From the IMG/VR virus record IMGVR_UViG_2585427750_000031: 10,792 nt of DNA, one strand, 5' to 3'. This document shows positions 1,069 to 10,792 of the stretch, one piece after another. Positions within the stretch are counted from its first letter, which is position 1. Each line of letters begins with the position of its first letter. Origin of the DNA: a virus. Lineage: Duplodnaviria > Heunggongvirae > Uroviricota > Caudoviricetes. The notes under the pieces are model-generated. The model saw only the letters and a list, made by a program, of their open reading frames with translations, was not told the DNA's origin and did no database searches. The translations under genes were made by a program, and so were the position numbers.

Positions 1069-1129
1069 GTTGTATGAACTCTTGTGTGAGCTTACATACC
1101 TATAGAACAGAGTAAAGCCTAATCTGACA

Positions 1130-1153
1130 GTCCGCTCTGTGCCAGGAGCGGAC
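1130..1153 (+). other. Stem-loop (8-bp stem GTCCGCTC / GAGCGGAC, 8-nt loop) about 60 bp downstream of G; possible end of the fibre operon transcript
   Basis: Perfect inverted repeat read directly from the sequence. There is no U-tract after it, so it is not a canonical intrinsic terminator. Confidence 0.25.
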
Positions 1154-1388
1154 ATAACGACACGTTAGTTAGAAATCTCAAGACCAATTAGGTTGGATAC
1201 TTACATGTATACTATTGCCTAACGATACTACCCTATCAACCTCATGGTTTATAGGCGGGGGGGAGAGCCAATCGAACGCTATCGTACGTTTTTATGCTGT
1301 CTACCCTAGACCCCAAGTAGACATGAATCTTACCTGATTTCCATACGAGGGCGACGTTGATCATCCAGCTTTAGTGCGAGCACTGAAC

Positions 1389-1417
1389 TTAACATTTACC
1401 AGCAATAGTGATATTTT
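1389..1417 (+). promoter_or_regulatory. Candidate sigma70 promoter for the cargo protease gene (TTAACA - 17 bp - TG-n-TATTTT)
   Basis: -35-like TTAACA at 1389-1394 and extended -10 TGaTATTTT at 1409-1417 with 17-bp spacing, in an AT-rich stretch about 45 bp upstream of ATG 1462. By-eye motif match only. Confidence 0.3.
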
Positions 1418-1461
1418 CTACAAAGAAAAATATATGGAATAACGTCATCGCGGGTACAAAA

Positions 1462-2454
1462 ATGACTATAAAAAAAACATATGTAACACCAACAGAAATA
1501 GTGAAATATTTTTATGACAAACCGGAAAACGATAACGTAAAAGAGAGAAAAACAATTGAGAGCCTGACCCGTCTCAAACCTGAGTGGGAAAATACTCTCG
1601 ATATGATGAAGTTAATACGCAATTGTGAAAAGCTAGCAACTGAAGGTATTTTAATGGAATTATCTTCAGGACATACTCTTTTGGACCGTTGCTATTTCGC
1701 ACCGAATTTCAATGAATCAGATGCGAAATATGGAAAGTATGATTTTATAGCTGATGGATTTGAGTCAATCATAGACCGCCTTAGTCCTTCCGTTTTACCT
1801 GTTGTTGTTGAAAAAAGTGATGGTTCACATGATCTTGGTACTAGTTTTATTGTTGGGAATAACCACACGATATTTACAGCCAGACATGTTATTGAAGACA
1901 TGAAGAGTATCAGGATACTTAGAGCTGGTGGTGAGGCTTTACCAATACATAAAATCTTTGTATCTAACGATGAACGTATTGATATCGCTTTAGTTTTCAC
2001 AACCATTCCGAATGAAGATAATATTCAACCACTTAAGGTCTCAACCAAAGCCTCGGTACTGGATGAAATTTTATCAATAGGATTTCCACCCATTCCAGGA
2101 TTTGATGCATTAAAGTTATATGACGTTTCGCATATAAATTCGTTTGTCCGACTGTCAAAGGGGCGAATTGTTGGTTCTGGTCACTCTTACTTAGATTCAC
2201 AAGACTTTTTATTATTCAATGCTAGGGTTAAGGGGGGGAATAGCGGTGGCCCTATAATTAACAAATACGGCTTTGTTGTTGGTATGCTTGTACAAATACC
2301 AATATCATCTGAGGACAGTTCAAAGATTGATAACCTTGGATATGGTATAGCTGTAACAGGAAAAAGCCTGCTGGATGCCATTACATTTACAGAAAATGGC
2401 CGCGAATTAACACTCACCGACCGAGGAAATGGAGAATATTCAACTCTAGCATAA
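1462..2454 (+). CDS. Two-domain protein: N-terminal domain of unknown function (~120 aa) plus C-terminal trypsin-like (S1 / chymotrypsin-fold) serine protease; candidate cargo/defence gene
   Basis: Long ORF (track 1408..2454). The C-terminal half carries an ordered His/Asp/Ser triad in the usual motifs: TARH(142)VIED, ERID(174)IALVF, GGNS(261)GGPII, numbered from ATG 1462. No N-terminal signal peptide and no PDZ domain. Start chosen at ATG 1462 because GTG 1408 overlaps the candidate promoter; 1408 remains possible. The gene is strongly AT-rich compared with the flanking phage genes. Confidence 0.8.
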   Translation: MTIKKTYVTPTEIVKYFYDKPENDNVKERKTIESLTRLKPEWENTLDMMKLIRNCEKLATEGILMELSSGHTLLDRCYFAPNFNESDAKYGKYDFIADGFESIIDRLSPSVLPVVVEKSDGSHDLGTSFIVGNNHTIFTARHVIEDMKSIRILRAGGEALPIHKIFVSNDERIDIALVFTTIPNEDNIQPLKVSTKASVLDEILSIGFPPIPGFDALKLYDVSHINSFVRLSKGRIVGSGHSYLDSQDFLLFNARVKGGNSGGPIINKYGFVVGMLVQIPISSEDSSKIDNLGYGIAVTGKSLLDAITFTENGRELTLTDRGNGEYSTLA

Positions 2455-2929
2455 ATGATATTATTAATTAAGTTGTACTAACTCAGTTTAAATGAATCAA
2501 GCATCCCCGTAACTTTGCCTGAAAAGGCTCATCGAGGGATGCACATTGTACGGATGTGTGAAAACTAAATCGGCTTTGTCACTTGGATTCGAGGGGAAAA
2601 CTGAACTGAAAGCGATAAAAACGTCTAAAAAATCGTTTCGCAGACAGATGCACCCGATTCAAGCCATTTTGAGGAAGGCTTTCTGCCTTTTATATTTATA
2701 TTAATCATAAGCTTATTCCATTGGTGTACGATATCGTGCTTTGCCCCTCATCTCCCAGATAACTAATTAGCCTTAAAATTACTCATGTGTTTCTGCCGGT
2801 TAAAATTATATGGTTTTCATTTACAATAGTCTCAAGTCCGCTCTTCGCTCAAAGCAGACTGTCAGATTTGATAGCATTTGGGCTATGTAAATTGTCAGGC
2901 GGAAAATGAGTGAGTACAAATCAGGACAG

Positions 2930-2957
2930 GCGGGCGAATTGCCCGCATTTTCTTTAT
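2930..2957 (+). terminator. Rho-independent terminator closing the cargo segment, upstream of the FI late promoter
   Basis: GCGGGC-gaatt-GCCCGC hairpin (2930-2946) followed by ATTTTCTTTAT. Confidence 0.5.
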
Positions 2958-2958
2958 C

Positions 2959-3030
2959 TGTTGTTTCATCCCCTGACCAGCCAGGTCAAATAGCGTCTCA
3001 TGCTCTGCACAACAGAAAATAGTTGCACCC
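2959..3030 (+). promoter_or_regulatory. Region expected to hold the Ogr-activated late promoter of the FI-FII-E-T-U-D operon (P2 PF equivalent)
   Basis: P2 synteny predicts a late promoter here. It contains a perfect dyad TGACC-agcca-GGTCA (2974-2988) and the distal pair TGTTGT (2959-2964) / ACAACA (3009-3014). I could not find an exact TGT-N12-ACA match, so the precise site is unresolved. Confidence 0.3.
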
Positions 3031-3051
3031 ATTAACCACGGAGTTAAACGG

Positions 3052-4242
3052 ATGAGTGACTATCATCACGGTGTGCAGGTGCTGGAGATTAACGACGGCA
3101 CCCGCGTCATTTCCACCGTATCCACGGCCATTGTCGGCATGGTCTGCACGGCCAGCGATGCGGATGCGGAAACCTTCCCCCTCAATAAACCGGTGCTGAT
3201 TACCAATGTGCAGAGCGCAATTGCAAAGGCCGGTAAAAAAGGCACGCTGGCGGCATCGTTGCAGGCCATCGCCGACCAGTCAAAACCGGTCACCGTTGTC
3301 GTGCGTGTGGAAGACGGCACCGGCGACGACGAGGAAACGAAACTCGCGCAGACCGTTTCCAATATCATCGGCACCACTGACGAAAACGGTCAGTACACCG
3401 GACTGAAAGCCCTGCTGGCGGCGGAGTCGGTAACCGGTGTTAAACCGCGTATTCTTGGTGTGCCGGGGCTGGATACCAAAGAGGTGGCTGTTGCACTGGC
3501 ATCAGTCTGTCAGAAGCTGCGCGCTTTCGGATATATCAGCGCATGGGGCTGTAAAACCATTTCCGAGGTGAAAGCCTACCGCCAGAATTTCAGCCAGCGT
3601 GAGCTGATGGTCATCTGGCCGGATTTCCTCGCATGGGATACGGTCACCAGTACCACCGCCACCGCGTATGCCACCGCCCGTGCGCTGGGTCTGCGTGCCA
3701 AAATCGACCAGGAGCAGGGCTGGCATAAAACGCTGTCCAACGTCGGGGTAAACGGTGTTACCGGCATCAGCGCATCTGTATTCTGGGATTTGCAGGAGTC
3801 CGGCACCGATGCTGACCTGCTTAACGAGTCAGGCGTCACTACGCTGATTCGCCGCGACGGTTTCCGATTCTGGGGTAACCGTACCTGCTCTGATGACCCG
3901 CTGTTCCTCTTTGAAAACTACACCCGCACCGCGCAGGTGCTGGCCGACACGATGGCTGAGGCGCACATGTGGGCGGTGGACAAGCCCATCACTGCAACGC
4001 TGATTCGCGACATTGTTGACGGCATCAATGCCAAATTCCGTGAGCTGAAAACAAACGGCTATATCGTGGATGCGACCTGCTGGTTCAGCGAAGAATCCAA
4101 CGATGCGGAAACCCTCAAGGCCGGAAAACTGTATATCGACTACGACTATACACCGGTGCCTCCTCTTGAAAACCTGACCCTGCGCCAGCGTATTACCGAT
4201 AAATACCTGGCAAATCTGGTCACCTCGGTTAACAGCAATTAA
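3052..4242 (+). CDS. FI: Contractile tail sheath protein (P2 gpFI)
   Basis: 396-aa ORF, the same length as P2 FI. GGAG Shine-Dalgarno 8 nt upstream. Gene order FI-FII-E-T-U-D follows. Confidence 0.95.
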   Translation: MSDYHHGVQVLEINDGTRVISTVSTAIVGMVCTASDADAETFPLNKPVLITNVQSAIAKAGKKGTLAASLQAIADQSKPVTVVVRVEDGTGDDEETKLAQTVSNIIGTTDENGQYTGLKALLAAESVTGVKPRILGVPGLDTKEVAVALASVCQKLRAFGYISAWGCKTISEVKAYRQNFSQRELMVIWPDFLAWDTVTSTTATAYATARALGLRAKIDQEQGWHKTLSNVGVNGVTGISASVFWDLQESGTDADLLNESGVTTLIRRDGFRFWGNRTCSDDPLFLFENYTRTAQVLADTMAEAHMWAVDKPITATLIRDIVDGINAKFRELKTNGYIVDATCWFSEESNDAETLKAGKLYIDYDYTPVPPLENLTLRQRITDKYLANLVTSVNSN

Positions 4243-5257: not shown

Positions 5258-7697
5258 CAATGTAAAATTACAGGTATTGCTCAGGGCTGTTGACCAGGCA
5301 TCCCGCCCGTTTAAATCCATCCGCACAGCGAGCAAGTCGCTGTCGGGGGATATCCGGGAAACACAAAAATCACTGCGCGAGCTGAACGGTCACGCATCCC
5401 GTATTGAGGGATTTCGCAAGACCAGTGCGCAGCTCGCCGTGACTGGTCATGCACTTGAAAAGGCACGGCAGGAAGCCGAAGCCCTTGCCACACAGTTTAA
5501 AAACACCGAACGTCCGACCCGTGCTCAGGCGAAAGTGCTGGAATCCGCAAAGCGTGCGGCGGAGGACTTACAGGCGAAATATAACCGCCTGACGGATTCC
5601 GTTAAACGCCAGCAGCGGGAACTGGCCGCTGTGGGAATTAATACCCGCAATCTTGCACATGATGAGCAGGGGCTGAAAAACCGTATCAGTGAAACCACCG
5701 CACAGCTTAACCGGCAGCGTGACGCGCTGGCGCGTGTCAGTGCACAACAGGCAAAACTTAACGCAGTCAAACAGCGTTATCAGGCAGGAAAAGAACTTGC
5801 CGGAAATATGGCCTCAGTGGGCGCTGCCGGTGTGGGGATTGCGGCGGCGGGAACGATGGCCGGAGTTAAGCTGCTGATGCCCGGTTATGAGTTTGCGCAG
5901 AAAAACTCAGAATTGCAGGCCGTGCTCGGTGTGGCAAAAGATTCCGCCGAAATGGCCGCGCTCCGCAAACAGGCGCGCCAGCTCGGCGACAATACCGCCG
6001 CCTCAGCGGATGATGCGGCCGGTGCGCAGATTATCATTGCGAAAGCGGGTGGAGATGCTGCGGCTATTCAGGCGGCAACGCCGGTCACGCTGAATATGGC
6101 ACTGGCGAATCAGCGGTCGATGGAAGAAAACGCGCAACTGTTGCTGGGGACTAAGGCATCCTTTCAACTGTCAAATGATGATGTCAGCCATGTGGGCGAC
6201 GTGTTGTCGGCAACGATGAATAAGTCGGCGGCTGATTTTCAGGGACTCAGTGATGCACTGACTTACCTCGGTCCGGTTGCGAGGACGGCAGGTGTAAGTC
6301 TTGAACAGGCAGCGGCCATGACAGGTGTGCTGCATGACAATAACATCAGGGGGTCAATGGCGGGGACGGGTGGCAGTGCCGTTGTCACCCGATTACAGGC
6401 ACCGACTGGAAAAGCATGGGATGCACTCAAAGAGCTTGGCGTTAAAACCTCGGACAAAAAGGGAAATATGCGTCCGTTGTTCACCATTCTGAAAGAGATT
6501 CAGGCCAGCTTTGATAAACACAAGCTGGGAACGTCTCAGAAGGGGGAATACCTTAAAACCATTTTTGGTGAGGAAGCCCTGAAATCAGCGAACGTTTTAC
6601 TGGCAGCGGCTGCAAGCGGAAAACTGGATAAGCTGACCGCCACACTGAAAGCCTCAGACGGTAAAACGGAAGAGCTGGTTAAAATCATGCAGGACAACCT
6701 CGGCGGTGACTTTAAGGAGTTTCAGTCCGCTTATGAAGCGGTGGGGACTGACCTGTTTGACCAGCAGGAAGGCGCACTGCGTAAGCTCACGCAGACGGCC
6801 ACAAAGTATGTGTTAAAACTCGACGGCTGGATACAGAAAAACAAATCACTGGCGTCAACCATTGGCCTAATTGCCGGTGGCGCGCTGGCGCTTACTGGCA
6901 TCATCGGTGCCATTGGTCTTGTAGCCTGGCCGGTTATCACCGGCATCAATGCCATCATCGCGGCAGCAGGCGCAATGGGGGCAATCTTCACGACGGTTGG
7001 CAGTGCTGTTATGACCGCCATCGGGGCGATTAGCTGGCCGGTTGTGGCCGTGGTGGCCGCCATTGTCGCCGGGGCGTTGCTTATCCGTAAATACTGGGAG
7101 CCTGTCAGCGCATTCTTTGGCGGTGTGATGGAAGGGCTGAAAGCGGCATTTGCGCCGGTGGGGGAACTGTTCACGCCACTTAAGCCGGTGTTTGACTGGC
7201 TGGGCGAAAAGTTACAGGCCGCGTGGCAGTGGTTTAAAAACCTGATTGCCCCGGTCAAAGCCACCCAGGACACCCTGAACCGTTGCCGTGATACTGGCGT
7301 CATGTTCGGGCAGGCACTGGCTGACGCGCTGATGCTGCCGCTTAATGCGTTCAACAAACTGCGCAGCGGAATTGACTGGGTACTGGAAAAACTCGGTGTT
7401 ATCAACAAAGAGTCAGACACACTTGACCAGACCGCCGCCAGAACTCAAGCCGCCACGTATGGCAGCGGTGGTTATATTCCGGCGACCAGCTCTTATGCAG
7501 GCTATCAGGCTTATCAGCCGGTTACGGCACCGGCTGGCCGCTCTTATGTGGACCAGAGTAAAAACGAATATCACATCAGCCTGACGGGTGGTACTGCGCC
7601 GGGGACACAGCTTGACCGCCAGTTACAGGATGCGCTCGAAAAATACGAGCGGGATAAACGTGCGCGCGCCCGTGCCAGCATGATGCATGACGGTTAA
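5250..7697 (+). CDS. T: Tail tape measure protein (P2 gpT)
   Basis: 815-aa ORF, the same length as P2 T. N-terminal coiled-coil-like, Ala/Gln-rich sequence and a C-terminal hydrophobic Gly/Ala-rich segment typical of tape measure proteins. Its start overlaps the E' end. Confidence 0.95.
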   Translation: MSNNVKLQVLLRAVDQASRPFKSIRTASKSLSGDIRETQKSLRELNGHASRIEGFRKTSAQLAVTGHALEKARQEAEALATQFKNTERPTRAQAKVLESAKRAAEDLQAKYNRLTDSVKRQQRELAAVGINTRNLAHDEQGLKNRISETTAQLNRQRDALARVSAQQAKLNAVKQRYQAGKELAGNMASVGAAGVGIAAAGTMAGVKLLMPGYEFAQKNSELQAVLGVAKDSAEMAALRKQARQLGDNTAASADDAAGAQIIIAKAGGDAAAIQAATPVTLNMALANQRSMEENAQLLLGTKASFQLSNDDVSHVGDVLSATMNKSAADFQGLSDALTYLGPVARTAGVSLEQAAAMTGVLHDNNIRGSMAGTGGSAVVTRLQAPTGKAWDALKELGVKTSDKKGNMRPLFTILKEIQASFDKHKLGTSQKGEYLKTIFGEEALKSANVLLAAAASGKLDKLTATLKASDGKTEELVKIMQDNLGGDFKEFQSAYEAVGTDLFDQQEGALRKLTQTATKYVLKLDGWIQKNKSLASTIGLIAGGALALTGIIGAIGLVAWPVITGINAIIAAAGAMGAIFTTVGSAVMTAIGAISWPVVAVVAAIVAGALLIRKYWEPVSAFFGGVMEGLKAAFAPVGELFTPLKPVFDWLGEKLQAAWQWFKNLIAPVKATQDTLNRCRDTGVMFGQALADALMLPLNAFNKLRSGIDWVLEKLGVINKESDTLDQTAARTQAATYGSGGYIPATSSYAGYQAYQPVTAPAGRSYVDQSKNEYHISLTGGTAPGTQLDRQLQDALEKYERDKRARARASMMHDG

Positions 7698-8191: not shown

Positions 8192-9354
8192 TGCTGGATG
8201 CGCTGACATTTGATGCAGGCAGTACGCTGACGCCGGATTACATGCTGATGCTCGACAGCAGGGATATTACCGGCAATATCAGCGACCGTCTGATGAGCAT
8301 GACCCTGACGGATAACCGGGGCTTTGAGGCTGACCAGCTTGATATTGAACTGAACGATGCCGACGGGCAGGTCGGGCTGCCGGTTCGTGGCGCTGTCCTG
8401 ACGGTGTATATCGGCTGGAAAGGTTTTGCCCTGGTATGCAAAGGGAAATTTACCGTTGATGAGGTTGAACACCGGGGCGCACCGGATGTGGTCACCATCC
8501 GCGCCCGGAGTGCAGATTTTCGCGGGACGCTCAATTCCCGCCGTGAAGGCTCCTGGCATGACACCACGCTCGGTGCGATTGTTGAGGCGATAGCCTCCCG
8601 TAACTGGCTGGAAGCCAGTGTCGTTCCATCACTGGCCGGAATTAAAATCCCGCACATCGACCAGTCGCAGGAGTCTGATGCAAAATTCCTGACCCGCCTT
8701 GCTGAACGCAACGGCGGTGAGGTGTCGGTAAAAATGGGAAAACTGTTGTTTCTCAAAGCGGGGCAGGGGGTGACGGCCAGCGGTAAAAAAGTCCCGCAGG
8801 TCACCATAACCCGCAGCGACGGCGACCGCCATCATTTTGCGATTGCTGACCGTGGAGCCTATACCGGCGTAACGGCAAAGTGGTTACACACCAAAGACCC
8901 GAAGCCGCAAAAGCAGAAGGTAAAACTGAAACGCAAAAAGAAAGAGAAACACCTGCGCGCACTGGAGCACCCGAAAGCGAAACCAGTCACGCAGAAGAAA
9001 GCGCCAAAAGTACCGGAAGCGCGCGAAGGTGAATACATGGCCGGTGAGGCTGACAACGTTTTTGCACTGACCACGGTATATGCCACGAAAGCACAGGCCA
9101 TGCGCGCCGCTCAGGCGAAGTGGGATAAACTGCAACGGGGTGTGGCGGAGTTCTCCATCAGCCTGGCTACCGGTCGGGCAGATATTTACACGGAAACACC
9201 GGTTAAAGTGTCAGGCTTTAAGCGCGTCATAGACGAGCAGGACTGGACAATCACTAAGGTGACACATTTTCTGAATAATAGCGGCTTCACGACGTCCTTA
9301 GAGCTTGAGGTCAGGCTTTCTGATGTGGAGTACGAAACCGAAGATGATGAGTGA
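8191..9354 (+). CDS. D: Tail protein D (P2 gpD)
   Basis: 387-aa ORF, the same length and position as P2 D. Its ATG overlaps the U stop codon (TAATG). Confidence 0.93.
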   Translation: MLDALTFDAGSTLTPDYMLMLDSRDITGNISDRLMSMTLTDNRGFEADQLDIELNDADGQVGLPVRGAVLTVYIGWKGFALVCKGKFTVDEVEHRGAPDVVTIRARSADFRGTLNSRREGSWHDTTLGAIVEAIASRNWLEASVVPSLAGIKIPHIDQSQESDAKFLTRLAERNGGEVSVKMGKLLFLKAGQGVTASGKKVPQVTITRSDGDRHHFAIADRGAYTGVTAKWLHTKDPKPQKQKVKLKRKKKEKHLRALEHPKAKPVTQKKAPKVPEAREGEYMAGEADNVFALTTVYATKAQAMRAAQAKWDKLQRGVAEFSISLATGRADIYTETPVKVSGFKRVIDEQDWTITKVTHFLNNSGFTTSLELEVRLSDVEYETEDDE

Positions 9355-9690: not shown

Positions 9691-9782
9691 TGGTCGATGT
9701 GGACGCTATGTGGACAGTGCTTGATATAAATCCATTTATATCATCAGGTTAGGTGCTTTTTTGTGACACCATCCCTGTCTTC
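9691..9782 (+). other. Prophage right junction (attR side): the phage/host boundary and att core are expected within this interval
   Basis: In an integrated P2-like prophage ogr is the last gene before attR, and host DNA (fieF) follows within ~200 bp. The exact core cannot be determined without the attL end. Confidence 0.4.
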
Positions 9783-9808
9783 CCCCACATGATGTGGGGT
9801 TTTTTTTT
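9751..9808 (+). ncRNA. cpxQ: Possible 3' end of host cpxP mRNA / CpxQ 3'UTR-derived sRNA, including its terminator
   Basis: The sequence GTGACACCATCCCTGTCTTCCCCCACATGATGTGGGG-T9 resembles what I recall of the conserved cpxP 3'UTR/CpxQ. cpxP lies immediately upstream of fieF in E. coli K-12. This is from memory and not verified. Confidence 0.25.
9783..9808 (+). terminator. Rho-independent terminator (CCCCAC-atgat-GTGGGG followed by nine T)
   Basis: GC-rich hairpin plus a T9 tract, read directly from the sequence. Confidence 0.7.
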
Positions 9809-9889: not shown

Positions 9890-10792
9890 ATGAATCAATC
9901 TTATGGACGGCTGGTCAGTCGGGCGGCGATTGCTGCGACGGCGATGGCTTCGTTGCTATTGCTGATTAAAATTTTTGCATGGTGGTATACCGGGTCGGTG
10001 AGTATTCTCGCCGCGCTGGTGGATTCGCTGGTGGATATCGGCGCGTCGTTGACGAATTTATTGGTGGTGCGATATTCCCTGCAACCTGCCGACGATAATC
10101 ACTCGTTTGGTCACGGTAAAGCTGAGTCCCTCGCGGCGCTGGCGCAAAGTATGTTTATCTCCGGTTCGGCACTATTCCTGTTTTTGACGGGTATTCAACA
10201 TCTGATATCTCCAACACCGATGACAGATCCAGGCGTCGGGGTTATCGTGACAATTGTGGCGCTAATTTGTACGATTATCCTTGTCTCGTTTCAGCGTTGG
10301 GTGGTGCGGCGGACGCAAAGCCAGGCGGTGCGGGCTGATATGCTACATTACCAGTCTGATGTTATGATGAACGGCGCAATTCTGCTGGCGCTGGGGTTGT
10401 CCTGGTACGGCTGGCATCGCGCCGATGCTCTGTTTGCATTGGGAATCGGCATCTATATTTTATATAGCGCGTTACGCATGGGATATGAGGCGGTACAGTC
10501 ATTACTGGATCGCGCATTGCCTGATGAGGAACGGCAAGAAATTATTGATATCGTGACTTCCTGGCCGGGTGTTAGCGGCGCTCACGATCTTCGCACGCGG
10601 CAGTCAGGGCCGACCCGCTTTATTCAGATTCATTTGGAAATGGAAGACTCTCTGCCTTTGGTTCAGGCACATATGGTGGCGGATCAGGTAGAGCAGGCTA
10701 TTTTACGGCGTTTTCCGGGATCGGATGTAATTATCCATCAGGACCCCTGTTCCGTCGTACCCAGGGAGGGTAAACGGTCTATGCTTTCATAA
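9890..10792 (+). CDS. fieF: Cation-diffusion-facilitator family Fe(II)/Zn(II) efflux transporter FieF (YiiP)
   Basis: 300-aa product starting [49 protein letters not shown]..., recognisable as E. coli FieF/YiiP, with transmembrane segments and the CDF signature. GGAG Shine-Dalgarno 5 nt upstream. The stop codon is the last three bases of the window. Confidence 0.95.

Follow-up and report, generated by a model that had tools for sequence, protein, structure and literature searches.

What occupies the gap between genes G and FI of a P2-like prophage in Escherichia coli, what might its product do, and how did it come to lie there? These questions were raised by a stretch of viral DNA of 10,792 nucleotides (nt) (IMG/VR record IMGVR_UViG_2585427750_000031; hereafter the window), which by its open reading frames (ORFs) and their Pfam matches contains the right half of such a prophage. 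An initial annotation had taken the whole of positions 1069–3051 for an AT-rich foreign segment at the P2 G–FI (Z/fun) hotspot. Our reading is that a moron-type cassette, in all probability acquired horizontally, sits in this slot between two 24-nt palindromic cores, that its single gene encodes a predicted cytoplasmic protease with an N-terminal winged-helix domain, and that this protease may serve in anti-phage defence. We put the probability of this statement as a whole (foreign cassette, cytoplasmic protease and defence role together) at about 0.55.

The G–FI interval and its cargo

The segment fills the gap between G (541–1068, + strand; tail fibre assembly protein, Pfam Caudo_TAP E = 1.8e-33) and FI (3052–4242, + strand; tail sheath protein, Pfam Phage_sheath_1, Phage_sheath_1C and Gp18_domIII_N), the left and right conserved flanks, and the genes beyond FI (FII, E, T, U, D and ogr) are arranged as in P2. 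The Prokaryotic Genome Annotation Pipeline (PGAP) also names G a 'tail fiber assembly protein' in an identical locus. The G–FI hotspot is textbook P2 biology, and AT-rich cargo is expected there. Both ends of the segment, 1069–1153 and 2836–3051, proved to be conserved P2 backbone; they carry inverted repeats, a terminator and the sequence leading up to FI, and are 90–95% identical with P2, P2-EC67, L-413C, pro147 and others. When 50,697 phage records were searched, matches lay on the flanks alone and the middle of the cargo was left uncovered. The best of them was AJ512685 (P2-EC67 'Z-region'), in which the left and right inverted repeats of the Z region are annotated; these correspond to 1041–1153 (AJ512685 3–115) and 2836–2926 (AJ512685 1255–1345) of the window. 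The left repeat aligns with the reverse complement of the right repeat and is conserved in P2 relatives with different cargos. P2 (Z/fun), P2-EC67, L-413C, pro147 and P24C9 each carry a different cargo of their own at the same junctions, with flanks that align. The foreign part of the segment is 1154–2835 (+ strand, 1682 bp, GC 0.377), as delimited by the missing phage-record match, by composition and by its occurrence among E. coli genomes (see below). For this part the initial annotation was right; it had drawn the boundaries too wide on both sides.

Composition sets the cargo apart from the structural genes. GC content is 0.391 over 1069–3051 and 0.371 in the protease gene, with 0.281 at third codon positions (GC3), against 0.535–0.568 and a GC3 of 0.59–0.71 for FI, FII, T, U and D. 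Every 1682-bp window in FI..D had a GC content of 0.543–0.568, none lower. Relative synonymous codon usage (RSCU) of the protease gene correlated with that of the structural genes at −0.20, compared with 0.84 for FI and 0.41 for G. Since GC windows, GC3 and RSCU all deviate, the shift is real and far above local fluctuation. The AT-richness first noticed by eye was thereby confirmed, at 0.38–0.39 GC rather than the 'roughly one-third' then estimated; the GC-rich surroundings described on both sides exist on the right (FI..D, 0.54–0.57) and not on the left, where G reaches only 0.445 overall.

The slot was compared among P2-like prophages. A scan of IMG/VR for the core of the left repeat gave 80 loci (L064–L143). 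Sixty-five G–FI intervals had both junctions (64 IMG/VR loci plus the window), and they held 31 unrelated cargo clusters of 787–5836 bp, all with a GC content of 0.32–0.45. Across the 31 distinct cargos, similarity is 90–100% through GTCCGCTCTGTGCC..GAGCGGACAT on the left and again from GTCCGCT..TCGCTCAAAGCAGACTGTCAGATT on the right, and random between. The protease cargo was present in 3 of the 64 IMG/VR loci besides the window. Among 5426 complete E. coli genomes it was found at ≥99% identity in 41, compared with 1693 genomes (1962 places) for the FI-side flank; a 2601-bp stretch including the cassette is 100% identical to E. coli strain 602687 (NZ_CP189657.1). Conserved flanks, 31 unrelated cargos and the deviant composition all agree with the initial proposal of a horizontally acquired cassette at the P2 hotspot, and the cargo neither matches its flanking genes in composition nor accompanies the flank invariantly. 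We are close to certain that 1154–2835 is a foreign cassette at this site.

The locus resembles the Z/fun locus of P2 (AJ512685) in its position, in its left and right inverted repeats and in an AT-rich, non-essential cargo that varies between isolates; it differs in that the cargo here is neither Z/fun nor that of any phage record searched. The G–FI interval is documented as a variable hotspot (Nilsson 2004, through AJ512685; PMC9122126; bioRxiv 10.1101/2024.10.15.618418; PMC13586616), so the locus type is already known and the specific cargo is an uncharacterised addition to it. The slot is largely unexplored; its commonest cargos are single genes of 175–447 amino acids (aa).

The protease and its gene

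The cargo contains one credible gene (1462–2454, + strand), which encodes a 330-aa protein with a winged-helix domain and an S1 serine protease domain. PGAP places its start at the ATG at 1462 and names the product 'S1 family peptidase' (WP_000152899.1). Seventy-four homologues of ~330 aa were found; in an alignment of 46 sequences the start Met agrees with the PGAP call, the N-terminal region is conserved, and His142, Asp174 and Ser261 (codons 1885–1887, 1981–1983 and 2242–2244, + strand) are invariant. The protein was modelled with AlphaFold2 as a monomer (predicted local distance difference test score, pLDDT, 84; predicted template modelling score, pTM, 0.84). Residues ~126–297 (1837–2352, + strand) form an HtrA/DegS-like trypsin-fold protease domain, recognised by Pfam (Trypsin_2, E = 1.8e-17), by a profile search of the PDB (HtrA, 2.3e-14) and by Foldseek (DegS/DegP, 1.5e-13). 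NCBIfam scores were all far under the family cut-offs, and a fold search of BFVD returned generic viral trypsin-like proteases alone. The family has been seen in phage genomes before, since phrog_18002 (PHROGs v4, 'unknown function') matches 330/330 positions (E = 3.6e-235); it is the same family and has no functional annotation.

The likeness to the HtrA family (DegS, DegP, DegQ), which gave the best matches in both sequence and structure, covers the trypsin fold, the His-Asp-Ser triad and the GNSGGP active-site motif. It does not extend to the PDZ domain or to the export signal or membrane anchor of that family. No PDZ domain was detected by Pfam in the 330-aa protein, which ends ~30 residues past the protease domain; no membrane segment was predicted in it, and no hydrophobic N-terminus, leader or signal peptide was found (maximum 19-residue Kyte-Doolittle mean 1.21). 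A secreted or periplasmic protease was rejected for lack of a leader sequence. Instead, the protein bears an N-terminal winged helix and is predicted to be cytoplasmic. HtrA proteins are trimer-based oligomers with allosteric activation; the models of the cassette protein are of the monomer. The protein is probably an active cytoplasmic protease.

The N-terminal domain (residues 1–115, 1462–1806, + strand) has an acidic winged-helix fold, with an isoelectric point of 5.2 (family median 5.55). This acidity would favour a protein-binding over a DNA-binding type of winged helix. A sub-threshold Pfam match to CTD12 of ABC-3C systems (E = 0.0039; 18.1 bits, cut-off 25) was treated as noise. When a profile of the domain was searched against 1.84 billion representatives (50% identity clusters), ~170 clusters were returned. 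Nearly all of the 150 listed were proteins of 300–370 aa, the size of the two-domain protein, or shorter, and the longer or N-terminally offset proteins that were tested all consisted of the N-terminal domain plus Trypsin_2 again. A weak match to a repeat protein (P0205) among these results was ignored. The domain was considered as a shuffled sensor domain and rejected as such, the profile search having found it solely on this protease.

The cargo is a moron-like unit with its own predicted sigma-70-type promoter, one gene and a non-coding tail. The promoter-like site (1389–1417, + strand; consensus scan) consists of TTAACA, a 17-nt spacer and a TG-extended TATTTT. Its −35 hexamer and the TGATATTTT element are kept in five enterobacterial copies of the gene that share upstream sequence; they are ~80% identical and represent four other contexts, L012 and a Klebsiella plasmid counting as one, and the L009 copy retains the −35 hexamer alone. 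Non-coding DNA of 300–380 bp lies on each side of the gene. No further ORF of ≥60 aa was found in the cassette outside the protease gene, and the ~380 bp downstream of it contain no credible ORF. Within this tail lie a stem-loop of the 3′ untranslated region (2501–2542, + strand; GCATCCC...GGGATGC with an inner GCC-GAAAA-GGC hairpin, in both the minimum free energy and the centroid folds), partly conserved in L008 with one compensatory pair, and a terminator-like hairpin with a T-run (2673–2700, + strand; consensus scan). A second such intrinsic-terminator-like site, GCGGGCGAATTGCCCGC plus a T-run (2930–2955, + strand; consensus scan), lies in the backbone and is conserved in all P2 relatives. 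In E. coli the stretch 2500–2835 occurs solely together with this cassette, and it is absent from the L009-type and Klebsiella copies; because it is so confined, the tail is not a conserved partner of the gene. Its part at 2455–2773 (~320 bp) has no counterpart in other copies. A 52-aa ORF starting with TTG at 2546–2704 was rejected as a partner, as it has no match in any database searched, PADLOC included, and lies in the tail that other copies lack. A structured RNA in the non-coding parts was also rejected: no Rfam match was obtained in 1069–3051 at E ≤ 1, and folding z-scores of −1.7 and −1.05 were unremarkable.

Might the AT-rich stretch have arisen by chance fluctuation of composition, or be a dead remnant without function? 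In G itself, the 5′ half (541–800) has a GC content of 0.38, as low as the cargo, in keeping with the modular exchange known at this locus for genes of the tail fibre and its assembly (bioRxiv 10.1101/2024.10.15.618418). In addition, the prophage is probably defective, because its tail fibre gene H is interrupted: at 19–537 it is broken by the end of an IS3-family transposase, whose C-terminal fragment (19–285; rve_3, Pfam) adjoins a 69-aa remnant of the tail-fibre C-terminus (328–537). PGAP labels the tail fibre a pseudogene in a near-identical locus. Against both ideas, none of the structural-gene windows given above comes down to the GC content of the cargo, the ORF is intact, the gene is 99–100% conserved in the 41 genomes and its catalytic residues are kept across phyla. 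These counts refute chance or decay, to which we assign almost no weight. In full, the window runs from the transposase fragment and the tail-fibre remnant through G, the cassette segment, FI, FII, E/E′, T, U, D and ogr to the host gene fieF (from 9872). A below-threshold Rfam match to the Hrs1 small RNA at 9742–9807 (− strand; 28.8 bits, gathering score 56.4; E = 0.028) lies between ogr and fieF, near the right end of the prophage; with its A-run it resembles a terminator hairpin, and chance is the most likely reason for the match.

A possible role in anti-phage defence

What would such a protease do in a lysogen? We propose that it would be made constitutively from the prophage and held latent; under constitutive expression, latency would be a necessity. 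HtrA proteases are switched on allosterically, through ligand binding and oligomerisation. In the cassette protein, the winged-helix domain would take the place of the PDZ sensor and may bind a phage-made protein or an infection-induced ligand. HtrA-style allosteric activation would follow this recognition, and the superinfecting phage would be blocked once the activated protease cleaves a phage protein or an essential protein of the host. The defence function, its trigger and the activation mechanism are what we infer here; the chances that the cassette is a single-gene anti-phage module, of the abortive-infection or exclusion kind, appear about even.

The distribution of the family bears on this proposal. 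It was found in 44 of 185,579 species (one representative genome each), spread over Bacteroidota, Cyanobacteria, Verrucomicrobia, Nitrospinota and Proteobacteria. The 150 nearest neighbours included pAgo, QatA, a retron-VII reverse transcriptase (RT), TIR-APAZ, AbiEii, HipA, Mrr and nSTAND3. Other copies adjoin AbiU2 and DUF4238 in a primase-bearing element, directly follow a P4-type integrase at ssrA, lie within a rearranged P2-like remnant or, on Klebsiella IncF plasmids, adjoin TacAT. This neighbourhood pattern suggests a defence or addiction-type accessory gene. Relatives are few and patchily distributed, mostly on mobile elements or next to defence genes, and on that ground our best guess is an anti-phage role for the gene by itself. 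No neighbour gene recurred across the 44 loci, which argues that the protein acts alone or with host factors.

The gene may be expressed and yet have a role outside defence, such as counter-defence (it might cut host immune proteins or the repressor of a rival phage), protein quality control or another trait of lysogenic conversion. The P2-EC67 cargo at the same site is annotated as a 'putative lysogenic conversion protein' (AJ512685), and P2 hotspots also hold toxins, partition systems and occasionally anti-defence genes (PMC9122126; PMC13586616). The acidic N-terminal domain, which looks protein-binding, would suit one specific protein target, and some homologues lie amid housekeeping genes. 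Within this group of roles, a secreted virulence protease is unlikely, as there is no signal peptide or membrane segment. The patchy, mobile-linked distribution and the defence-gene neighbours of several homologues fit defence better than housekeeping proteolysis, and we consider a role outside defence rather unlikely.

A search of defence-system models gave matches at the level of the generic protease domain and did not extend to an anti-phage identity for the cargo. The closest PADLOC models were RT-Protease_XI (7e-13), LmuA (5e-10) and HamA (2e-7), the protease modules of retron XI, Lamassu and Hachiman, respectively. The cassette protein shares with the trypsin-like modules of these systems and of Avs a protease domain, residence on mobile elements and, in several homologues, the vicinity of defence genes. 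The modules of Hachiman, Lamassu and Avs are trypsin–metallo-β-lactamase (MBL) pairs of protease and nuclease (PMC12799240; bioRxiv 10.1101/2025.09.03.673762). The present protease lacks an MBL pro-nuclease partner, is not fused to an RT, HamA, LmuA or a STAND sensor, and has a private N-terminal domain; the trypsin–MBL scheme does not apply to it because there is no MBL partner.

Could it then be a leftover of a larger system, either a type XI retron RT–protease or a Hachiman/Lamassu/Avs trypsin–MBL module, non-functional by itself? The identity of the best PADLOC matches and the non-coding DNA on both sides of the gene speak for such a leftover. The matches are, however, confined to residues 133–297. 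The cassette has no RT, MBL or sensor ORF, no RT domain was recognised by Pfam, and the Rfam search of 1069–3051 returned no retron RNA. The full-length, two-domain architecture of 330 aa is conserved across phyla with its triad invariant, no neighbour is conserved, Lactamase_B is outside the 25 commonest neighbour Pfam families of the 44 loci, and the non-coding tail is peculiar to this cassette. A retron or other larger system is largely refuted by the missing RT, MBL or partner ORF, and we regard the leftover explanation as highly improbable.

Several observations weigh against a defence role. The copy in Nitrospina lies amid housekeeping genes, and the defence neighbours listed above are strong but individual examples, so that their pattern is suggestive only. 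Slot location is weak evidence for defence, because most common cargos have no defence annotation: six of nine cargos sampled from the commonest clusters had no PADLOC match. The other sampled cargos matched PDC-S15 (FRG-like), a pAgo-associated restriction endonuclease domain and PDC-S33, and one singleton cargo matched OLD/Gabija-like ATPases; the PDC-S15 and ATPase matches, for their part, speak for a defence role. The PADLOC matches of the protease itself span only its generic domain. Shuffling of the kind seen in defence sensors is absent, as the N-terminal domain never occurs on another effector. The promoter and terminators are consensus matches only, and we found no mention of this protein or of a phenotype in the literature.

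Palindromic cores and movement of the cassette

How was the cargo brought to this slot? The cassette is bounded by two 24-nt palindromic cores, GTCCGCTC TGTGCCAG GAGCGGAC on the left (1130–1153) and GTCCGCTC TTCGCTCA AAGCAGAC on the right (2836–2859), lying in 33-nt arms (1121–1153 and 2836–2868) that are 85% complementary. The left core is 90–100% conserved over the 31 cargos, and similarity becomes random within ~3 nt beyond it. A simple one-site model does not fit these cores, since the two have different loops. Their repeats were also considered as ERIC-type dispersed repeats, on account of an 11-nt resemblance; with no more than 5 occurrences in any one genome, the left repeat is not a high-copy element, and this possibility was rejected.

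In 13 of the 41 E. coli genomes the cassette occupies the G–FI slot. The remaining 28 gave a megablast match that runs only from 1130/1134 to 2859/2865 (99.2–99.4% identity) and ends inside or near the cores. Three of these 28 genomes were inspected, giving four contexts with the P2 slot: a thrW island, where DUF4236 and DUF2971 genes and a P4-like satellite lie alongside; a lambdoid prophage, with a DUF2254 gene on one side and hokD on the other; and the end of an e14-like prophage, adjoining the vat island. The spacing between markers just inside the cargo ends is identical in all four (1662 bp), and the sequence beyond the cores is unrelated. Each left core consists of 8 context-dependent nt followed by TGTGCCA(A/G)(A/G)AGCGGAC, 16 nt that travel with the cargo; similarly, in each right core the first 16 nt, GTCCGCTCTTCGCTCA, stay with the cargo and the last 8 depend on the context. 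Between P2 prophages, the cargo is 99.7% identical and its flanks ~92%. The core arrangement also appears elsewhere: an 82%-identical gene in another enterobacterium is framed by the same inverted repeats of ~100 bp and follows a P4-type integrase, and a DUF2971 cassette lies between the same cores in a pathogenicity island of E. coli 536.

The presence of the same cassette in at least four unrelated elements, with junctions within the cores and a cargo more conserved than its flanks, argues for movement by exchange at the palindromic cores and not through long flanking homology. This fits the site-specific cassette exchange that Nilsson, Karlsson and Haggard-Ljungquist reportedly proposed in outline in 2004.

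The alternative is that cargo turns over through ordinary homologous recombination within the conserved flanks, G and FI, and that the palindromes are no more than transcription terminators. This concerns the route of acquisition and is separate from the question of what the gene does. It is the usual explanation for hotspots between conserved core genes (PMC13586616), long flank homology is available among P2 relatives, and the cores are hairpins located after an operon. Against such recombination stand an identical cassette in four contexts without common flanking homology, outer 8 nt that follow the context when the inner 16 follow the cargo, and matches in 28 genomes that stop at 1130–1134 and 2859–2865. 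The enterobacterial gene beside the P4-type integrase and the DUF2971 cassette of E. coli 536, both framed by these repeats or cores, also speak against it. We consider homologous recombination rather unlikely as the main route.

Three further sites were observed. In a lambdoid prophage of E. coli EcPF7 (L063, 5030–5075), a single complete hairpin, GACAGTCCGCT-N10-AGCGGACTGTC, is followed by no cargo and may be an unoccupied site of the P2-core type. In the thrW island (L184), a second palindrome, CCGCA(G/T)ACACGT...ACGTG(C/T)TGCGG, forms a direct repeat (6345–6405 and 8820–8880) flanking the DUF2971 and DUF4236 pair, suggesting that other hairpin-bounded cassettes adjoin the protease cassette there. 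In the same island, a second right-core-like sequence, CCGTCCACTTCGCTCCAACAGAAGAC, at ~10743–10768, lies ~17 bp past the right core and may be what an earlier cassette left behind, or else the beginning of an array.

Integron attC cassettes and Xer-dependent dif modules likewise combine discrete cassettes, imperfect palindromes, unrelated host elements and hybrid junction sites. The cassette described here differs from an integron cassette in having its own conserved promoter and a core at each end. No integron integrase was found among the window ORFs, nor by PGAP in the near-identical locus L002, and the core is not known to resemble dif or attC. More speculatively, and with odds that we consider low, the cores could be sites at which promoter-bearing accessory or defence genes are exchanged by an unrecognised, integron-like mechanism that would employ none of the known recombinases, and the protein, separately, a new single-protein, protease-based abortive-infection system. 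Under that reading, the cores may shuttle genes among the P2 tail hotspot, lambdoid and e14-like prophages, tRNA/tmRNA islands and pathogenicity islands.

To a specialist, an AT-rich moron at this site is unsurprising; the useful leads are the protease family and the clean junctions. The family is compact and rare: a winged-helix domain private to it is joined to a predicted cytoplasmic, HtrA-like protease. Should the gene serve in defence, its product would be a protease system of one protein, without a nuclease partner, unlike the recent protease–nuclease pairs. The most recent survey of P2 and P4 hotspots explicitly leaves open the process by which cargo is swapped (PMC13586616); a cassette shared by four or more unrelated E. 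coli mobile elements, with its junctions within 24-nt palindromes, offers a concrete means of testing that process.

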